Below are positions 27,702-53,010 of a stretch of 64,000 nt of DNA, one piece after another. The DNA is taken from contig OY759316.1 in NCBI GenBank assembly GCA_963662275.1, positions 2,016,001 through 2,080,000 of the forward strand. The letters run 5' to 3'. The DNA comes from Candidatus Cloacimonadales bacterium (lineage in GTDB: Bacteria > Cloacimonadota > Cloacimonadia > Cloacimonadales > DAONDQ01). Within the stretch, counting starts at the first letter, position 1. The number at the start of each line of letters is the position of its first letter. The translations under genes were made by a program, and so were the position numbers. The notes beneath the pieces were generated by a model. That model was not told the origin of the DNA. It did not search any database and was given only the letters and a program-made list of their open reading frames with translations.

Positions 27702-28054
27702 TAAAGGTGAAATTGAAGTTGATTTTTTGATTCAAAATTGATTCTTAGTTAAATTATAGGAGGTTAATATGGGTGGAAGTGTTATTCAAGAACAACAAAA
27801 AAGTGATCAAAGAGTATACTTAACATAATATGGATATTTCGGAGTGAGAGAGCATAGTGTACGCTCCAACAGAGCCACGTCTTCGGAAAAATAGAGCCAC
27901 TCTTCTATTTTCAATAATTAATACAGGTAATATACAAAAAAATAAGCTATAACTAATCTTTTTGCGACGGCTGCCGTGAAGTGAGGCCGTAGGCCGAGCG
28001 AAGCGGCAGCCGTCGCCGGGAAAGTTGTAGTACCATCCCAAGTATTAACTATCG

Positions 28055-28801
28055 TTATTCTTTCTTAATGCCATTGCGTTCTCTCATTGACACTTTACCA
28101 TCGATAAAAATAGGATAGGAATCGTGTATAATCCGGTCAAGGATGGCATCGGCAAGGGTTTCCTGACCAATCTTCTCATGCCATCCTCCGGTTCTGAACT
28201 GAGAACAGAAGATCGTTGATGAGTGCTGATGCCTCGCTTCGATAATCTCCAAAAGATCTCTTGCCTCTTGTTCTCTGAGTGGTGTCAGCAGCCATTCATC
28301 AAGTATCAGCAGTTTGATCTGCTTGTATTGTTTTATGACTTTCTTAAAAATACCTTCACCTCTGGCAACTGCCAGGTCATCCAGCAATTCGGGAAGTCGT
28401 ATATATCTGACAGGATAATAGTTCCGGCAGGCTGCTATCCCGAAAGCACAACCCAGCCAGGATTTCCCGTTTCCTGATGCTCCCATAATGATTATATTCC
28501 GATTTTCGCTGATGTAACTGCAGGTTGATAAACGGATAATCTCAGATCGATCCAGCTTTCTGTCATCATGATATTCTACGTCTTCAATACTTGCCTGGCT
28601 GAACTTCAAGTTTGCCTTCTTAATTAGCCTCTGCAGTCTGTTATTTTTGCGTCTGGCCCATTCAGCATCTACGAGCAGACTGAAGCGTTCTTCGAAAAGC
28701 AAATCCTTAAATGCACCATCATGTAATTGCTGGCAGAAAGTATCAGCCATAGCACTCAAATGCATCTCGTGAAGCTTATTGACTGTTGATTGGCTGATCA
28801 T
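28055..28801 (-). CDS. istB: IS21 helper ATPase IstB
   Basis: GASGNGKSWL Walker A, LLILDEW Walker B, ADAILDRI. Confidence 0.95.
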   Translation of the reverse strand: MISQSTVNKLHEMHLSAMADTFCQQLHDGAFKDLLFEERFSLLVDAEWARRKNNRLQRLIKKANLKFSQASIEDVEYHDDRKLDRSEIIRLSTCSYISENRNIIIMGASGNGKSWLGCAFGIAACRNYYPVRYIRLPELLDDLAVARGEGIFKKVIKQYKQIKLLILDEWLLTPLREQEARDLLEIIEARHQHSSTIFCSQFRTGGWHEKIGQETLADAILDRIIHDSYPIFIDGKVSMRERNGIKKE

Positions 28802-30342
28802 TTATTTTTCCTCCCGTAGTAGTCTGCACCTCTGGTAATACCAAAATCAGAAGCAGGATCATTCTTTGCAGTCTCTGCCGCATTATTGATCTTATCAAAA
28901 CCCGTCTTGAGTATGGTTTGGATATTTTTATAACCGGGATTGGGTGTATAAGATAATGCCCTTTGACATGCACTTTCGAGCCTCTGCACAGAATACCTGT
29001 CAGCTGATTTCAGAAGTGCCATACAGGAACGGTATCCCTGCTGTTCAACACGATAGGATGCCAGAATAGACTTAATTACGATCATCGTATGTTCCCCTAT
29101 TTCCTTTGCCCAGGAGATAAACCTCTCTGCATTCCATTCCTGATATTTCTGATGCTGTTCAGGCATATGTTCAGGGAGTGTCTGATACTGACCGGGATGA
29201 CCAAATTTCCTGACATGGGAAGCGATTCTGTTGGAGTTATAGAAAACCTCGACAACTCTGCTTGTGATGCGTACATCCACATAGTATTTTATGTATTCAT
29301 AAGGAACCGAATAGTACATCTTATCCACGCTTATATGATAATTGAACTGTACTGTTGCCTTTGACCAGGCAGCAAGCTCATATGGCGACAATGACAATGG
29401 AATAAGCATGGGCTGTTCTTCTGCCTGAAAGACACTTTCTCTGCTTCCTTCTTTCTTTTGAAAGGGCTTGGTATTGAACTCTCCCAGTTTTTCCCTGATT
29501 GACATATTGAGTTCATGAAGCGAAAAGAATGTCTGGTTTCGCAAGGCAGCAATGATCCAGGTTGAGATGACTCCAACTGTGCCTTCTGCACTGGGCTTAT
29601 CCTTTGGTCTTCTAACTCTGGCAGGTATTACCGCAGTATCGTAATAAGCAGACATTTCTCCATAGGTTCTGTTGATAACGGGAGTATACCACGACACATG
29701 GTCAACTCCCGTCTTAAGATTATCAGGAACAAGTATTTTAGTAACTCCATTAAAGTACTTGAAGCTATTTATATGAGCCTGAATCCAGCTTTCCATATTC
29801 ATGGAAAGAAAGGCTTCCACATAGGAATAACCACTGTACGGGAGGGTTGCTACAAAAACATAGGCTTTGATCGGTTCACCGGTAATGTTGTTTTTGATGG
29901 CGGCAGTCTGTCCAGCCCAGTCCACTTCCAGCTTTTCTCCTGGTTTGTGTTTTATTCGCATGGTTGCTTTTGTCTTTTGTGAGTAATCATGGTAATGTTT
30001 GCAAAATTGCGTATACTTGTAGGGAATAGCCTGATTATTCCTGCATCCCTCAGAGTATTCATGCCAGAGTAGCGACAGTGTTACACCACTCTTGGCAAGT
30101 TCCTTGTGTATGTGTTCATAATCAGGCATCTTCTGCGGGTTTGACGATAAGTAAGCCGGAAAGAGCTGCTCTTCGATCATCTCATTTGTTAATGTATCAG
30201 GAAGCGGCCATTCAAGGCTCTGGTCTGTTGCCCTTTGAATGATCATCGACACGTTATTGCGGGAACAGGATAAACTCGCCGCTATGCCTCGTCTGCTTAT
30301 TCCCTGGCTGTGTAAGCGAAGGATCTCTCGGTAATTGGTCAT
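28798..30342 (-). CDS. istA: IS21 transposase IstA
   Basis: N-terminal HTH, EVDWAG, VPDNLKTGV, PARVRRPKDK..AE DDE motifs; start set to ATG 30342 after GGAGG; ATGA overlap with istB. Confidence 0.95.
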   Translation of the reverse strand: MTNYREILRLHSQGISRRGIAASLSCSRNNVSMIIQRATDQSLEWPLPDTLTNEMIEEQLFPAYLSSNPQKMPDYEHIHKELAKSGVTLSLLWHEYSEGCRNNQAIPYKYTQFCKHYHDYSQKTKATMRIKHKPGEKLEVDWAGQTAAIKNNITGEPIKAYVFVATLPYSGYSYVEAFLSMNMESWIQAHINSFKYFNGVTKILVPDNLKTGVDHVSWYTPVINRTYGEMSAYYDTAVIPARVRRPKDKPSAEGTVGVISTWIIAALRNQTFFSLHELNMSIREKLGEFNTKPFQKKEGSRESVFQAEEQPMLIPLSLSPYELAAWSKATVQFNYHISVDKMYYSVPYEYIKYYVDVRITSRVVEVFYNSNRIASHVRKFGHPGQYQTLPEHMPEQHQKYQEWNAERFISWAKEIGEHTMIVIKSILASYRVEQQGYRSCMALLKSADRYSVQRLESACQRALSYTPNPGYKNIQTILKTGFDKINNAAETAKNDPASDFGITRGADYYGRKNK

Positions 30343-30797
30343 TGCATTGACCTCCATGAATTGATTTACACTGATACAGTGCATTAATTCATGTTGGTTT
30401 TTTCTTTCAAAATAGCAAGGTGGCTCTATTTTAGCGAAGACGTGGCTCTAAAACTCCGTACAAGTGGCTCTCATTTAGAATATTATTCAAATAAGCATTT
30501 CCCATCATAGGCATGATTGGATATGCTGTTGAACAAGCTCAAGTAGCAGGGTGATTTTGAATATGTATTTGGAAATTGCTTTTTGAAGATTTCTTGGGTT
30601 GAATTGGATTTTTACAATTTTAGCAGAGTCTTTTACCAATGGAAGAGATGATTTTCTTTTCAGAAGTTATCAAATCACTTTGAGATCAGACTTTTTGTGT
30701 ATGGGCTGATATTGTTTTCAAGTATTTTAGCAAATTGCCTGTAATATTTCGGTTGTTTCTATAATTTAGGCAAGACAATCCCGTCGGTAAAATTAAC

Positions 30798-31940
30798 TTA
30801 CAGTTTACCGCCATCAAAGCAATTTGCCAAAAACAACAGCGACCAAGGCGGTGATCTTGGTTTTCCGGTAATTGAAGCATGCTGTGTCATCTTTGATTTG
30901 CAATTAGGGCAGAGGTCTTTTTCAAATTTGGGAATTACAAAAGTTTTAGCTGTCTGATTCTTGTCATTAGAATCGGACTTTGCTGGGAAAAAGCTGTTGA
31001 CCATCTCCCAGACAGATTTTGCCGCCGGACTGAGAAATCCGTAGTATCTGATTTTCTGAAATCCCTGCGGCAGAACATGCATCAGGAACTTATTGATAAA
31101 CTCCACGGAGTCGACGCTTTTAAAGGCGAATTTAGCTGAACCTGCCGGCTTGTATTTAAAGGTTACCAGCCCGTCCTTTTCCCAAAGGATGCGATTGTTG
31201 GTGATGGCGGTCCGATACACATAATTGGCCAAATAAGTCAGAGCCTCCCGACCTTTTCCGACGGGTCGGGAGTCTGTGACAAACTCTTTTTGCTGCCAGA
31301 CTAGCGGGGATATCCGACCAAACAGATGCTGATTTTCCAGTCGAAGCAAATCACGGAATTTTGCCCGGTAAATCACCGAAAGAGCTTTGACCGGAATCAG
31401 GAACTTATTGCCTGCTTTTTGCCATTCCTTTCGTTCTTTATTCCAAGCTCCGCCGGGGACTATATAATGAATATGAGGATGATATTCAAGCTGCCTTGTC
31501 CAGGTATGAAGTACCCCGGTAAAGCCTGAAACGCCACCGGCATATTTGGGATCTGAAAGCAATGTCTTTAAGGCTTCAGATGATGCTTTGAACTGAAGAT
31601 CATAAAGCAGTTTCTGATTTGACAGGCATGTTTTGTGCAGTTCCCGGGGTATGGTGAAAGTTACCATGAAGTACTTAACCGGCAGCAGTTTGGCAAGCTG
31701 CTTTTCCAGCCATTTCGCTGAATCATTACGGCCACACTTCGGGCAGTGACGGTTTTTGCAGGAATGATAGGAATAATGCAGTTCCGCACATTCCTGGCAT
31801 AAATAGACTTCTCCGCCCAGTTCAGGTGTCCGGCAAAGGAGAATATCTCTGATCGCTCTTAAATGGCTTTCCGGTGACTGGTTTCCATATTTTTCCAGAT
31901 ACTCGGACAGGTTGTTTTTGAGAATCCTGCTAAAATCCAT
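30798..31940 (-). CDS. IS91-family rolling-circle (Y2 HUH) transposase
   Basis: Zn-binding CRT..LGG...C..C...SCKNRHCPKC; HTW...YHPHIH HUH motif; YLANYVYR (YxxxY); HVLPQGFQKIRYYG. Confidence 0.93.
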   Translation of the reverse strand: MDFSRILKNNLSEYLEKYGNQSPESHLRAIRDILLCRTPELGGEVYLCQECAELHYSYHSCKNRHCPKCGRNDSAKWLEKQLAKLLPVKYFMVTFTIPRELHKTCLSNQKLLYDLQFKASSEALKTLLSDPKYAGGVSGFTGVLHTWTRQLEYHPHIHYIVPGGAWNKERKEWQKAGNKFLIPVKALSVIYRAKFRDLLRLENQHLFGRISPLVWQQKEFVTDSRPVGKGREALTYLANYVYRTAITNNRILWEKDGLVTFKYKPAGSAKFAFKSVDSVEFINKFLMHVLPQGFQKIRYYGFLSPAAKSVWEMVNSFFPAKSDSNDKNQTAKTFVIPKFEKDLCPNCKSKMTQHASITGKPRSPPWSLLFLANCFDGGKL

Positions 31941-32813
31941 TTACATCTTATTCATCAGTTCATTGATGATTTTACATGACTGCTCTCGGGAAACGTTAGT
32001 CAAATGCACGTATACCATGGTCGCTCTAAGACTTTCGTGCCCGAGCAAGTCTTTGATGATGATGATACTGACACCTGCTTCCAATAAATGTGTGGCATAA
32101 GAATGTCTGAGTGTATGACAGGTTACATGCTTAGGGATGCGTGTCTCCTTTAAGGCTGACTTCAGAGCTGACCGAAGAGTTTGGACAGAAATCTGGTTCG
32201 AGGTTGTCATTCTGTTAATATCAGCCTGTCTGGTGCTTCTGCTCGGGAATAAAAGCTGTCTGTTCTGATGGGTTTTCCAATATTCCCGGAGTTCCTGATA
32301 CAATTTTTCAGGCAGAGGTATTGACCTGTCTTTGTTGCCTTTGGATTGCCTTACCGTGATGGTCATCAATTCCCGGTTGATATCGGCTATTTTAATCTTG
32401 ACTGCTTCCGAAATCCTTAATCCGCATTGATAGGTAAGAGTCAGTAAGAGTCGATAATCATAAGTATGAATGCGGGAGATAAGCATTCTAACTTCGTCTG
32501 TGGTCAGAATCACAGGAAGTTTGTGCTCAATCTTTGCCTTAAAAAAGGTAAAATCCTCTTGCCTGAAACCAACAACATGGATGAAAAAAAATCTGATGCC
32601 ATAATAGGCTGATTTTAAACTCTGAGGACTATAATTCTTGACGTTATGCAGGTAGACAAAATATGTTCTTACCTGTTCAATAGATAGTGTGCCGGGGTCT
32701 TGACCATAATATGATGCTAAAGAAGTGACTTGTCTGATGTAATTGTATTTTGTCTCTCGGGACACGCCTCGAAGATCAAGGCACTCTAAAAAGCGAACTT
32801 CGTATGATTCCAT
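31941..32813 (-). CDS. Site-specific tyrosine recombinase (integron-integrase-related, no obvious IntI-specific insertion)
   Basis: KLPVILT..EV, YQCGLRISE, SKGNKDR, HTLRHSYATHLLEAG, LLGH...T..Y; stop TAA directly abuts the transposase ATG. Confidence 0.93.
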   Translation of the reverse strand: MESYEVRFLECLDLRGVSRETKYNYIRQVTSLASYYGQDPGTLSIEQVRTYFVYLHNVKNYSPQSLKSAYYGIRFFFIHVVGFRQEDFTFFKAKIEHKLPVILTTDEVRMLISRIHTYDYRLLLTLTYQCGLRISEAVKIKIADINRELMTITVRQSKGNKDRSIPLPEKLYQELREYWKTHQNRQLLFPSRSTRQADINRMTTSNQISVQTLRSALKSALKETRIPKHVTCHTLRHSYATHLLEAGVSIIIIKDLLGHESLRATMVYVHLTNVSREQSCKIINELMNKM

Positions 32814-32846
32814 ACTTACCTCCAGTTAATTTTGGGGGTAAGTATG
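32811..32846 (-). promoter_or_regulatory. Hairpin sequestering the RBS and start codon of the recombinase
   Basis: Minus strand CATACTTACCcCCA-aaattaac-TGGaGGTAAGTATG, 13/14-bp stem containing GGAGG and ATG. Confidence 0.75.
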
Positions 32847-33776
32847 CTTTTAGTGAGGGTTCAGTATATCAATAGTTTAAATGCATGAAACACGAGTTTA
32901 CTGCGAACGGTACTGCTGCTTGCAGCTTCGTTCAACAAGAATTTCTTTTAGATTAGATATTCTACTTGCTTTTTTAGGGATTTTATTATCATTATTTAGT
33001 ATCGGATTTTCTTTATTTAATCGTGGTGAACAGTTGAAAGAAAAAAAGAGAGTCGATCAATTAACTTTCTTATCGATGGTTACTCCTGATGAAAGAAAAT
33101 GTTTTATTGATTATGCCAGACTTGTAAATATCCCAGAAAGTTCTGTCATGGATATGGCTAGCTCGCTAACTCAAGGCGTAAATAGATTCAATCGAGGCGA
33201 AATAACTAATTCATTGAGTTACTTTCAATATGCAATAAATTCATTACCGGATTATCCAACAGGATACTTAGCTGAAGCATACGTTTTCGAAAAGCTAAAA
33301 AATCAAGATAGTTTGATTTGCTATCTTCAAAAAGCTATTGAAAAAGCTGAGTCGCTTAGACCAGATTTGAAAGTGATATTTATTGGTGAAGTTAATACAT
33401 TTATTGTGAATGATAAAGAGATTTCTGATCCTCTACCAATTGGCACTTCTGCATGGAATATTGATAGTTTTATCTATCACTGTAAGAAAAAGCTTGAAAT
33501 CTATAATATTAATGGATGCGAGAAGAAAAAAACTATTACAAACACTGAATAAACATAATGACAATCTATTAATCATGGTTATATGAAGCAGGTATTTAAC
33601 AGGATGATTATGGAATCATATGTCACAAATAGCATCTAGGATTGATAAACTAAATATTTTGTGAGTGAGTTCGAAAATAGCTCAATTTTATTCATACTTC
33701 CAACAATTCAGTTGACATAATTTCCATACTTTGCGAATTAATAAAATAATGTATTATTATGTAAAGGGGGAAACCT

Positions 33777-52342: not shown

Positions 52343-53010
52343 CTAGATGATCCCTAGATGATGCCTAGATGATCCCTAGATGAACCCCAGCTCAAAAAGA
52401 AAGTGCGAAGTACGAAGTTCGAAGTACGAAATTACAGTGTTGTGGAGTAAGATGCCGATCTTACTGAATCTGCTCTTCATCCCCCATTGGGAAGGGGGGG
52501 CGGGGTAGCAGATAGTCTTATCTGTTTTGTGAGAGTGTCGTCCCGACCTCGAAAACTTCTGGCAGGATCGGCGTTCTGTTCTACAACCGCGTAAATGCGG
52601 AGCTACTCATCAGCAGGATCTACATCATACTCTACAATCTGTTGGACTTTACATGAAAGCTAAGAGTTTGGAGTTCAAATTTCCATCGAATCTATTACGA
52701 CTTCTCAAGTAGTAGGAAATTCGGACTTCAAAATCGACATTTTCATTCTCGGTAGCGAAAATCCTTTTCAGGGAAGTTCGAAATGCGGCAATGAAGCTGA
52801 CAAATGAAATATGAAAAGTAGGGGTTTGCGGTAGTAAACCCTTGTGCATGTGAATATGTGATGGGTTTACTACCGCAAACCCCTACTCTGTATCATAACT
52901 TTGAAAGTTGTTGTGGGGTTGGGTTTGAAACCCTACAACTCTTCAAGAGACCCCGAGGTTATAAACCATCGGGGAAAACAAGTTACAAACTTATGCAACA
53001 ACCCAACTTC
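52343..53010. repeat. Mosaic of repeat families: 11-mer x4, GAAGTWC heptamers, REP-like hairpins, 25-bp perfect IR
   Basis: CTAGATGAWSC x4 (52343-52386); heptamers 52401-52435; hairpin A 52442-52465; hairpin B 52584-52606; AGTAGGGGTTTGCGGTAGTAAACCC IR at 52817-52841/52863-52887. Confidence 0.85.

Follow-up and report, generated by a model that had tools for sequence, protein, structure and literature searches.

An IS91-family insertion sequence with an integron-integrase-like tyrosine recombinase in a Candidatus Cloacimonadales genome: boundaries, terminal architecture and a favoured transposase-mediated route

The window analysed here, a stretch of 64,000 nt from a Candidatus Cloacimonadales bacterium (assembly GCA_963662275.1, contig OY759316.1, positions 2,016,001 to 2,080,000 of the forward strand), carries a small plus-strand open reading frame (ORF) whose halves are separated by four mobile-element genes, all read from the minus strand, as seen from the ORF listing and family scans (Table 1). 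Two of the genes belong to a nested IS21-family element; the other two encode a tyrosine recombinase and a Y2 HUH transposase (tnpA) and belong to the element that is the subject of this report. Window positions 27825-32936 are one copy of a 2,449-bp IS91-family insertion sequence, a further member of the already catalogued IS91 subgroup in which a tyrosine recombinase is encoded upstream of a Y2 HUH tnpA. The recombinase stop codon directly abuts the tnpA start codon (TAA-ATG), and the recombinase gene is translationally coupled upstream of tnpA. On the plus strand, which is antisense to tnpA, the order of features is TAAC / ATAATAA - hairpin - T-GTTGAAC - tnpA - recombinase - palindrome - TTC-GTTCAAC / A. 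The first-pass annotation, made from the letters of the window alone, had described a discrete insertion within an ORF with a recombinase and a Y2 HUH transposase, and had called it an "autonomous integron cassette". The discrete insertion is supported, with the catalytic residues of both enzymes conserved; the mechanism behind the name is a testable hypothesis and not something that can be read from the DNA. The overall explanation that we favour, and consider probable, is a rolling-circle element of the IS91 family that moves by the canonical, transposase-mediated IS91 route, with the recombinase in an accessory function.

Table 1. Features of the interrupted locus (positions in the window)
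Feature	Position	Strand	Evidence or remark
5' part of the interrupted orphan ORF	27769..27824	+	ends with the target TAAC, 27821-27824
oriIS-side end, first 6 nt (ATAATA)	27825..27830	+	severed from the rest by IS21
IS21 target duplication AATA, copy 1	27827-27830	+	also part of the first 6 nt of the IS91-like element
IS21-family insertion sequence, 2,659 bp, TG...CA	27831..30489	-	NCBIfam, Pfam, five other copies
istB	28055-28801	-	Pfam IstB_IS21
istA	28798-30384	-	NCBIfam transpos_IS21
IS21 target duplication AATA, copy 2	30490..30493	+	sequence of the IS91-like element
oriIS-side subterminal hairpin	30495..30526	+	14-nt arms 30495-30508 / 30513-30526, 12/14 paired, loop AGGC
Inner box T-GTTGAAC	30527-30534	+	7-mer GTTGAAC at 30528-34; complementary to the terminal GTTCAAC-A
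Imperfect repeat of the other end	30535-30549	+	partner at 32913-32929
IS91-family Y2 HUH transposase (tnpA), 380 aa	30798..31940	-	NCBIfam, Pfam
Tyrosine recombinase, 290 aa	31941..32813	-	Pfam Phage_integrase
terIS-side end: palindrome GCTGC-TT-GCAGC, TTC, terminal box GTTCAAC	32913..32936	+	terminal box at 32930-32936
3' part of the interrupted ORF	32937..33552	+	

The genome holds 13 copies of the transposase/recombinase unit at approximately 100% identity, all of them full length, and its 13 oriIS ends and 13 terIS ends are always paired; no solo ends, miniature derivatives or one-ended products were found in this genome. On the plus strand all 13 copies start with ...TAAC / ATAATAAGC and end with ...GCTTCGTTCAAC, and in the 12 copies other than that of the window TAAC-ATAATAAGC is uninterrupted. 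The flanks diverge before TAAC and beyond GTTCAAC, and the terIS-side end is identical in every copy. To the left of each copy stands TAAC, and the next base after the element is A in 12 of the 13. For two of the insertion sites the same genome also has empty paralogous sites, and in these the place of TAAC is taken by 4 nt, no more and no fewer: the empty paralogue of copy 7, at 3040474, reads taac, as does a further one at 1589608, with aaac in others, and the empty paralogue of copy 1 has gaaa in that place. Since the empty paralogues retain these 4 nt, TAAC is the target and no target duplication is made. CAAC at the end of the element, usually with A after it, leaves the register of the boundary uncertain by 3-4 nt; with the boundary placed in the AAC/AACA register, the element is 2,449 nt long. 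Integration at a GTTRRRY site, as had been proposed, is not borne out, the target being TAAC(A), with TAAC at 13/13 sites and a match to GTTRRRY at 3/13; the invariant part on the coding strand is (T)GTTA, and the targets share merely 4-5 nt. The loop of the oriIS-side hairpin (30509-30512) is polymorphic among the copies, AGGC in six (including the window copy) and AGAC in seven, and splits the 13 into two sub-lineages.

Once 27826-32937 (5,112 nt, divisible by 3) is deleted, 27769-27825 and 32938-33552 form one open frame of 223 aa, with AACA at both junctions (27822-25 and 32934-37), exactly as the first-pass annotation had it. The interrupted ORF is a small orphan: a search of 5.8 billion proteins returned no homologue but the window's own chimeric 223-aa form, and the one same-genus genome compared has neither of its flanks. 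In four public runs, searched as assembled contigs in which repeats are collapsed, neither joints nor an empty allele nor a circle junction was present. Because the ORF is an orphan that is also absent from the same-genus genome, the real proof of the boundaries is the paralogous empty sites rather than the restored ORF. The chimeric 223-aa ORF now present (32881-33552) is opened by an ATG at 32881 inside the insertion sequence; its first 19 codons, the ATG included, come from the terIS end, and its length equals that of the restored ORF by coincidence.

The element nested in the window copy encodes IstA and the IstB ATPase, has TG...CA ends and is flanked by the short duplication AATA, and its proteins score 246 bits against NCBIfam transpos_IS21 (NF033546, cutoff 160) and 217 bits against IS21_help_AAA (NF038214, cutoff 200). 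There are six copies of this unit in the genome, that of the window included, at 99-100% identity, and the ends given in Table 1 were set by the other five. Where the window reads AATA-IS21-AATA, the 12 uninterrupted IS91-like copies read TAAC-AT-AATA-AGC; from the unbroken AATA it follows that IS21 entered the IS91-like element with a 4-bp duplication, so that the earlier removal of the nested IS21 together with one AATA was correct. The IS21 lies between the cleavage site (27824/27825) and the subterminal hairpin and splits oriIS by 2.66 kb; the window copy has therefore probably been immobilised. As to the IS21 elements themselves, the window copy and the copy at genome positions 921565-924223 are without a 22-nt segment behind position 27892 that is present in the other four near-identical copies and in contigs from the public runs. 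Approximately nine further full-length IS21-family copies and a few fragments form a second type, 66-68% identical to the window IS21, and the genome is altogether rich in insertion sequences.

The tnpA product scores 363 bits against NCBIfam transpos_IS91 (NF033538), above the IS91 equivalog cutoff of 125, and has the Pfam domains Y2_Tnp and Zn_Tnp_IS91. Its zinc cysteines, the histidines H154, H156 and H158 (HxHxH) and the tyrosines Y236 and Y240 are invariant when it is compared with nine transposase relatives. The best NCBIfam match of the recombinase is the integron integrase model TIGR02249, at 180 bits, which is below the cutoff of 265 and in two stretches, and its best PDB match is IntI4 (2a3v), in an alignment that skips about 32 residues (IntI4 181-221), i.e., the IntI-specific additional domain is absent; the first-pass annotation had likewise seen no obvious IntI-specific insertion. 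The catalytic set of tyrosine recombinases (R, K, HxxR, H/W, Y) is present: R133, K158, R236, H259 and Y268 are invariant among 11 sequences, and H233 is conserved in at least 90% of them. Judged by these residues, both enzymes look active. Integron integrases are the closest kin of the recombinase, yet it is without the IntI insertion. The recombinases of IS91 and IS3 transposons have been grouped with IntI in an integron-like subgroup, with the remark that these recombinases are without the IntI insertion (excerpted text of bioRxiv 10.1101/542381), and both points, the kinship with IntI and the missing insertion, hold for the recombinase of this element.

The 12/14-bp stem, the complementary GTTCAAC and GTTGAAC boxes and the imperfect outer repeat described in the first-pass annotation were all confirmed (Table 1). 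When the ends of an intact copy are joined they fold into one long hairpin of -27.2 kcal/mol, against -10.3 +/- 2.9 for shuffled sequences (z = -5.9; DNA parameters, 200 shuffles), in which GTTCAAC-A is paired with T-GTTGAAC and the junction lies at the edge of the box stem. This supports the earlier suggestion that the joined ends form an attC-like hairpin with RYYYAAC and GTTRRRY boxes. Beside the 14-bp stem, which has two mismatches, there is a one-sided bulge of 6-7 nt (against 0-1 nt on the other side), and the hairpin spacing is thus, as had been noted at the outset, not that of a canonical attC.

The terminal architecture was compared with that of relatives from four sources: a second multicopy family in a metagenome-assembled genome (18 copies, transposase 38% identical), nine recombinase-transposase pairs among 29 loci from the same phylum, four annotated plasmids from Chloroflexota, Alphaproteobacteria and Gammaproteobacteria, and 79 metagenomic loci. 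The gene pair and the end architecture occur on the Herpetosiphon, Sinorhizobium, Photobacterium and Pseudoalteromonas plasmids. In 67 of the 79 metagenomic loci the recombinase lies directly upstream (65 flagged loci, and L100 and L128 with a gap of 211-212 nt); nine of the remainder have less than 500 nt of contig upstream, and three are without an intact recombinase gene. The relatives share a coding-strand layout that begins with X-TTGAAC, (T/G)AA and a short GC hairpin, followed by the recombinase and the transposase, and that finishes with GTTCAA-Z, 0-5 nt, a long hairpin, a T-rich tail and X'TT. The long hairpin is found in the same place with a different sequence, the pairing being kept, and loci L035-L038 and L069, whose sequences are diverged, have the same terminal GTTA. 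Since the same ends recur in 13/13 copies and in diverged relatives from other phyla, these end features are not due to chance.

Of 94 candidate loci submitted to an automatic parse, both ends were obtained in 24, which are related loci, so that the counts are not those of independent events. Written in the order terminal nucleotide, inner-box partner and target-side triplet, 17 of the 24 were G/C/GTT, two were A/T/ATT, three were mis-parsed and two were discordant, namely L106 (A/C/GTA) and L066 (A/A/GTT). Read by eye, the mis-parsed L139 and L121 are A/T/ATT and L074 is G/C/GTT in a head-to-tail junction. The second multicopy family is also A/T/ATT, and so, by eye, is L013; in these A-type elements the boxes are GTTCAAT and ATTGAAC. 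The terminal nucleotide, its inner-box partner and the first base of the target-side triplet thus covary in at least four A-type lineages. The first-pass annotation had suggested that the flanks of homologues be aligned for GTT crossovers and covarying terminal hairpins: the hairpins do covary and the boxes are conserved, but the A-type relatives use ATT and not GTT. In the metagenomic contigs of L074 and L086, the 3' GTT of one copy forms the first three bases of the next GTTGAAC; such head-to-tail junctions either stem from tandem insertion into an end of the element itself or are circle junctions that were assembled.

The surroundings of the 13 targets were inspected for a further shared structure. 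Hairpins flanking TAAC on both sides occur at 0/13 sites. A hairpin directly 3' of TAAC occurs at 5/13 sites, whereas the whole genome has one at 929 of its 10,609 TAACA sites (P = 0.0036), in a test that was chosen after looking, the demand for hairpins on both sides having been relaxed, and with four of the five positives in one repeat family; in the second multicopy family a hairpin lies beside the target at 2/18 sites, against a background of 97/1,246 (7.8%; P = 0.41). A hairpin at the target as a general rule was accordingly rejected as post hoc, carried by one repeat family and not replicated in the second family. With replication strands assigned from the cumulative GC skew (ori near 4.16 Mb, ter near 2.15 Mb), TAAC is on the lagging-strand template in 8/13 copies, which is not a significant bias. 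An intergenic repeat of about 100 nt, which may be a repetitive extragenic palindromic (REP) family, consists of two or three short hairpins with (T)ACAA-type loops and often lies just upstream of an ATG. At one and the same TAAC, between two hairpins of this repeat, five IS91-like copies are found. Outside the window it was seen on the genome contig near 2109451, 460765, 905939, 3037872 and 2649200, and similar repeats lie within the window near 52505, 52894 and 60653 (genome 2068505, 2068894 and 2076653); flank segments have 43-117 BLAST matches in the genome.

By homology with IS91, IS801 and IS1294, we propose that the transposase nicks after the tetranucleotide adjoining the hairpin end (oriIS), that the nicked strand, antisense to tnpA, is displaced by rolling-circle replication, and that a second transposase cut after the look-alike CAAC at terIS closes a single-stranded circle, which the transposase would then paste 3' of a new TAAC without duplication. 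In this scheme the inner box would pair with the terminal box and probably help to present both cleavage sites, which would explain why the box, the terminal triplet and the target triplet covary; by analogy with the guide sequences of IS608, the three-way covariation is best read as pairing of the inner box with both cleavage sites. The recombinase would be an accessory acting on the joined ends, e.g., in precise termination or in the resolution of tandem or junction forms; being catalytically intact and conserved, it may be expected to cut DNA somewhere in the life cycle. At the window locus the element entered the small orphan ORF first, and IS21 followed later between the cleavage site and the hairpin. 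The element has been recently active. We favour the transposase-mediated route because every junction feature is the IS91 family's own, because TnpA alone suffices for IS91 (excerpts of PMC13181058), because the target is a bare motif of 4-5 nt, and because the target-side hairpin is not a replicated requirement. The contention that integration takes place "rather than" by classical oriIS/terIS IS91 insertion has to be given up, the ends matching the hallmarks published for IS91, IS801 and IS1294 (in the excerpted text of the same source).

Several observations weigh against this route. A catalytically conserved recombinase is more than a DNA-binding helper such as Orf121, and its nearest relatives, the IntI proteins, act on folded single strands; the joined ends give an attC-like hairpin whose boxes are arranged as in attC; none of the 13 copies is truncated, against 11-53% one-ended events for IS91 (PMC13181058, in excerpt); the junction bases of L106 fit a cut inside the triplet better than a cut after it; and an inner box complementary to the terminal box was not seen in the recombinase-less IS91 or in an IS1294-like copy, in which the inverted repeats are terminal, so that the inner-box architecture may go with the recombinase.

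These observations are what recommend a second explanation, the division of labour proposed in the first-pass annotation, in which the HUH transposase makes the single-stranded circle and the IntI-like recombinase integrates its folded junction, by exchange of one strand at AA/C, which is G/TT on the coding strand, with a (T)GTT(A) site. The recombinase would bind the boxes around the hairpin as an R box is bound on the bottom strand of attC, and replication would complete the event, as for integron cassettes and the CTX phage. The stable fold of the joined ends, with paired boxes and the junction at the box-stem edge, agrees with it, as do the RYYYAAC and GTTRRRY boxes of the G-type elements, the covariation of box, terminal triplet and target triplet (17 G/C/GTT and two A/T/ATT loci of 24, with L013, L139 and L121 added by eye), the retention of R, K, HxxR, H and Y in a recombinase closest to integron integrases, the inner box, not encountered in recombinase-less IS91 and the IS1294-like copy, and the exclusively full-length copies without solo ends; L106 combines a 5' A with an inner-box C and a 3' G, the pattern expected if the cut falls behind the first triplet base. 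These points do not discriminate, however, because the HUH model yields the identical product. The sequence cannot tell which enzyme integrates, since a HUH cut at AAC/ (5'-linked) and a recombinase cut at AA/C (3'-linked) lead to the same junctions, and the two multicopy families carry no information on the position of the cut, their target triplet being identical to that of the element; the second Herpetosiphon copy is only 72% identical. Reading the cut position from junction bases was dropped, single odd contigs such as L106 and L066 being too weak for the purpose. The recombinase-mediated route is moreover at odds with a target that is merely TAAC(A), with the lack of a shared second binding site or structure at the targets (5/13 sites, four of them in one repeat family, and 2/18), with the one-sided bulge in place of a symmetric attC spacer, with the AAT/ATT of the A-type families, which goes against the integron AAC/GTT rule, and with a recombinase that is without the IntI insertion of about 32 residues and falls short of the integron-integrase cutoff. 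For IS91, TnpA by itself inserts the single-stranded circles (excerpts of PMC13181058), and the TnpA of this element keeps all of its catalytic residues. We therefore consider the division of labour unlikely, though not negligible.

A third possibility, that the recombinase moves a double-stranded circle by ordinary two-strand site-specific recombination, in the manner of a small integrative element, and the transposase is merely a replication protein, would account for the intact and conserved recombinase and for the 3-4 nt of identity between element end and target. It is very improbable: neither the junction nor any of the 13 targets has inverted binding arms around a 6-8 bp spacer, the targets share just 4-5 nt, the transposase is a full IS91 equivalog and not a plasmid Rep, and the copy number and scattered sites resemble transposition. 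That TAAC belongs to the element, the restoration of the ORF being coincidental and target specificity absent, might be argued from its presence in 13/13 copies and from an orphan ORF that has no homologue to confirm its reality, but it is scarcely credible, as the empty paralogues have 4 nt (taac, aaac or gaaa) exactly at this position, deletion of TAAC as well would put a stop codon into the ORF, and the diverged L035-L038 and L069 end with the same GTTA.

As an object, then, the element is an ordinary insertion sequence present in 13 near-identical copies; the window copy breaks an orphan ORF and has in turn been broken by IS21. What is notable is the subgroup, in which an enzyme producing single-stranded circles is found, across phyla, coupled with a catalytically intact, IntI-like recombinase; the literature searched assigns no role to the recombinase of this IS91 subgroup. 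If the recombinase does act on the folded junction, these insertion sequences would link rolling-circle transposons with the origin of integron recombination, and under the division of labour outlined above they would be free-living kin of integron cassettes and would serve as a living model of how integrons came to recombine folded single strands. Otherwise, the covariation still suggests that a Y2 transposase recognises its cleavage sites through base pairing.

Among known systems the closest is the IS91 family (IS91, IS801, IS1294 and IS1294b). According to excerpts of PMC13181058, insertion in this family makes no target duplication and occurs next to a tetranucleotide (CTTG, GTTC or GTCC) that adjoins oriIS; terIS has one subterminal palindrome beside a related or identical tetranucleotide (CTCG or GTTC), and oriIS has one or two palindromes. 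The same excerpts give the order terIS - orf121 - tnpA - oriIS for IS91, state that the bottom-strand single-stranded circle alone inserts, with TnpA alone sufficing, and report one-ended products as 11-53% of events in assays. IS91 and an IS1294-like copy, read directly on two plasmids, show the published IS91 layout. The present element has every IS91-family feature examined: a Y2 HUH transposase with a zinc domain, no duplication, a target tetranucleotide abutting oriIS (TAAC) that resembles the terIS tetranucleotide (CAAC), a subterminal palindrome at terIS, oriIS palindromes in the form of the 14-bp hairpin and a weak version of the terIS repeat, and, coupled to tnpA on its upstream side, an accessory gene. 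It differs from the family in its target, which is TAAC (AAT in the A-type relatives) and not CTTG, GTTC or GTCC, in an accessory gene that encodes a catalytic tyrosine recombinase and is not orf121, in having the terIS repeat inside the oriIS hairpin as a box of 7-8 nt, where the inverted repeats of IS91 are terminal, and in the full length of 13/13 copies.

With the recombinase-bearing members of the IS91 family, found from Chloroflexota to Proteobacteria, the element shares the gene pair and an IntI-like recombinase without the IntI insertion. ISfinder presumably lists such members, e.g., ISShvi3, ISWz1 and ISSde12. The IS91-like ISShvi3 has been described adjacent to an attC site (excerpted text of PMC9229058). 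For this subgroup, nothing in the literature searched describes how the elements end, which target they use or what the recombinase does.

The likeness to integron cassettes lies in the coding strand, where G/TTGAAC - genes - GTTCAAC - hairpin - G/TT is the layout of a cassette, in the pairing of an RYYYAAC box with a GTTRRRY box in the joined ends, and in a recombinase that is the nearest non-IntI relative of IntI. Unlike a cassette, the element carries its own mobility genes, has no attI and meets GTTRRRY at 3/13 targets, and the A-type relatives depart from the attC boxes in breaking the AAC/GTT rule. Many attC inverse cores end in TAAC, the tetranucleotide targeted here; of the 13 target sites three show RYYYAAC in full, and nothing was found to mark the sites as attC. 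An attC site has L boxes, a roughly symmetric unpaired central spacer and extrahelical bases, a geometry in place of which the element has its one-sided bulge.

Elements of the IS200/IS605 group also insert at a tetranucleotide (TTAC for IS608) without duplication and have subterminal hairpins, and the short sequence at the foot of the hairpin described here could pair with both cleavage sites in the manner of an IS608 guide sequence; in contrast, the enzyme of the present element is Y2 and not Y1, the element is 2.4 kb long and has a recombinase, and its copies show no strong lagging-strand bias (8/13). The CTX phage, finally, is a precedent for a Xer-type recombinase that joins a folded single-stranded circle to a chromosomal site by exchanging one strand, but it uses the host Xer proteins and dif, whereas the element encodes its own recombinase and has a motif of 4-5 nt as its target.

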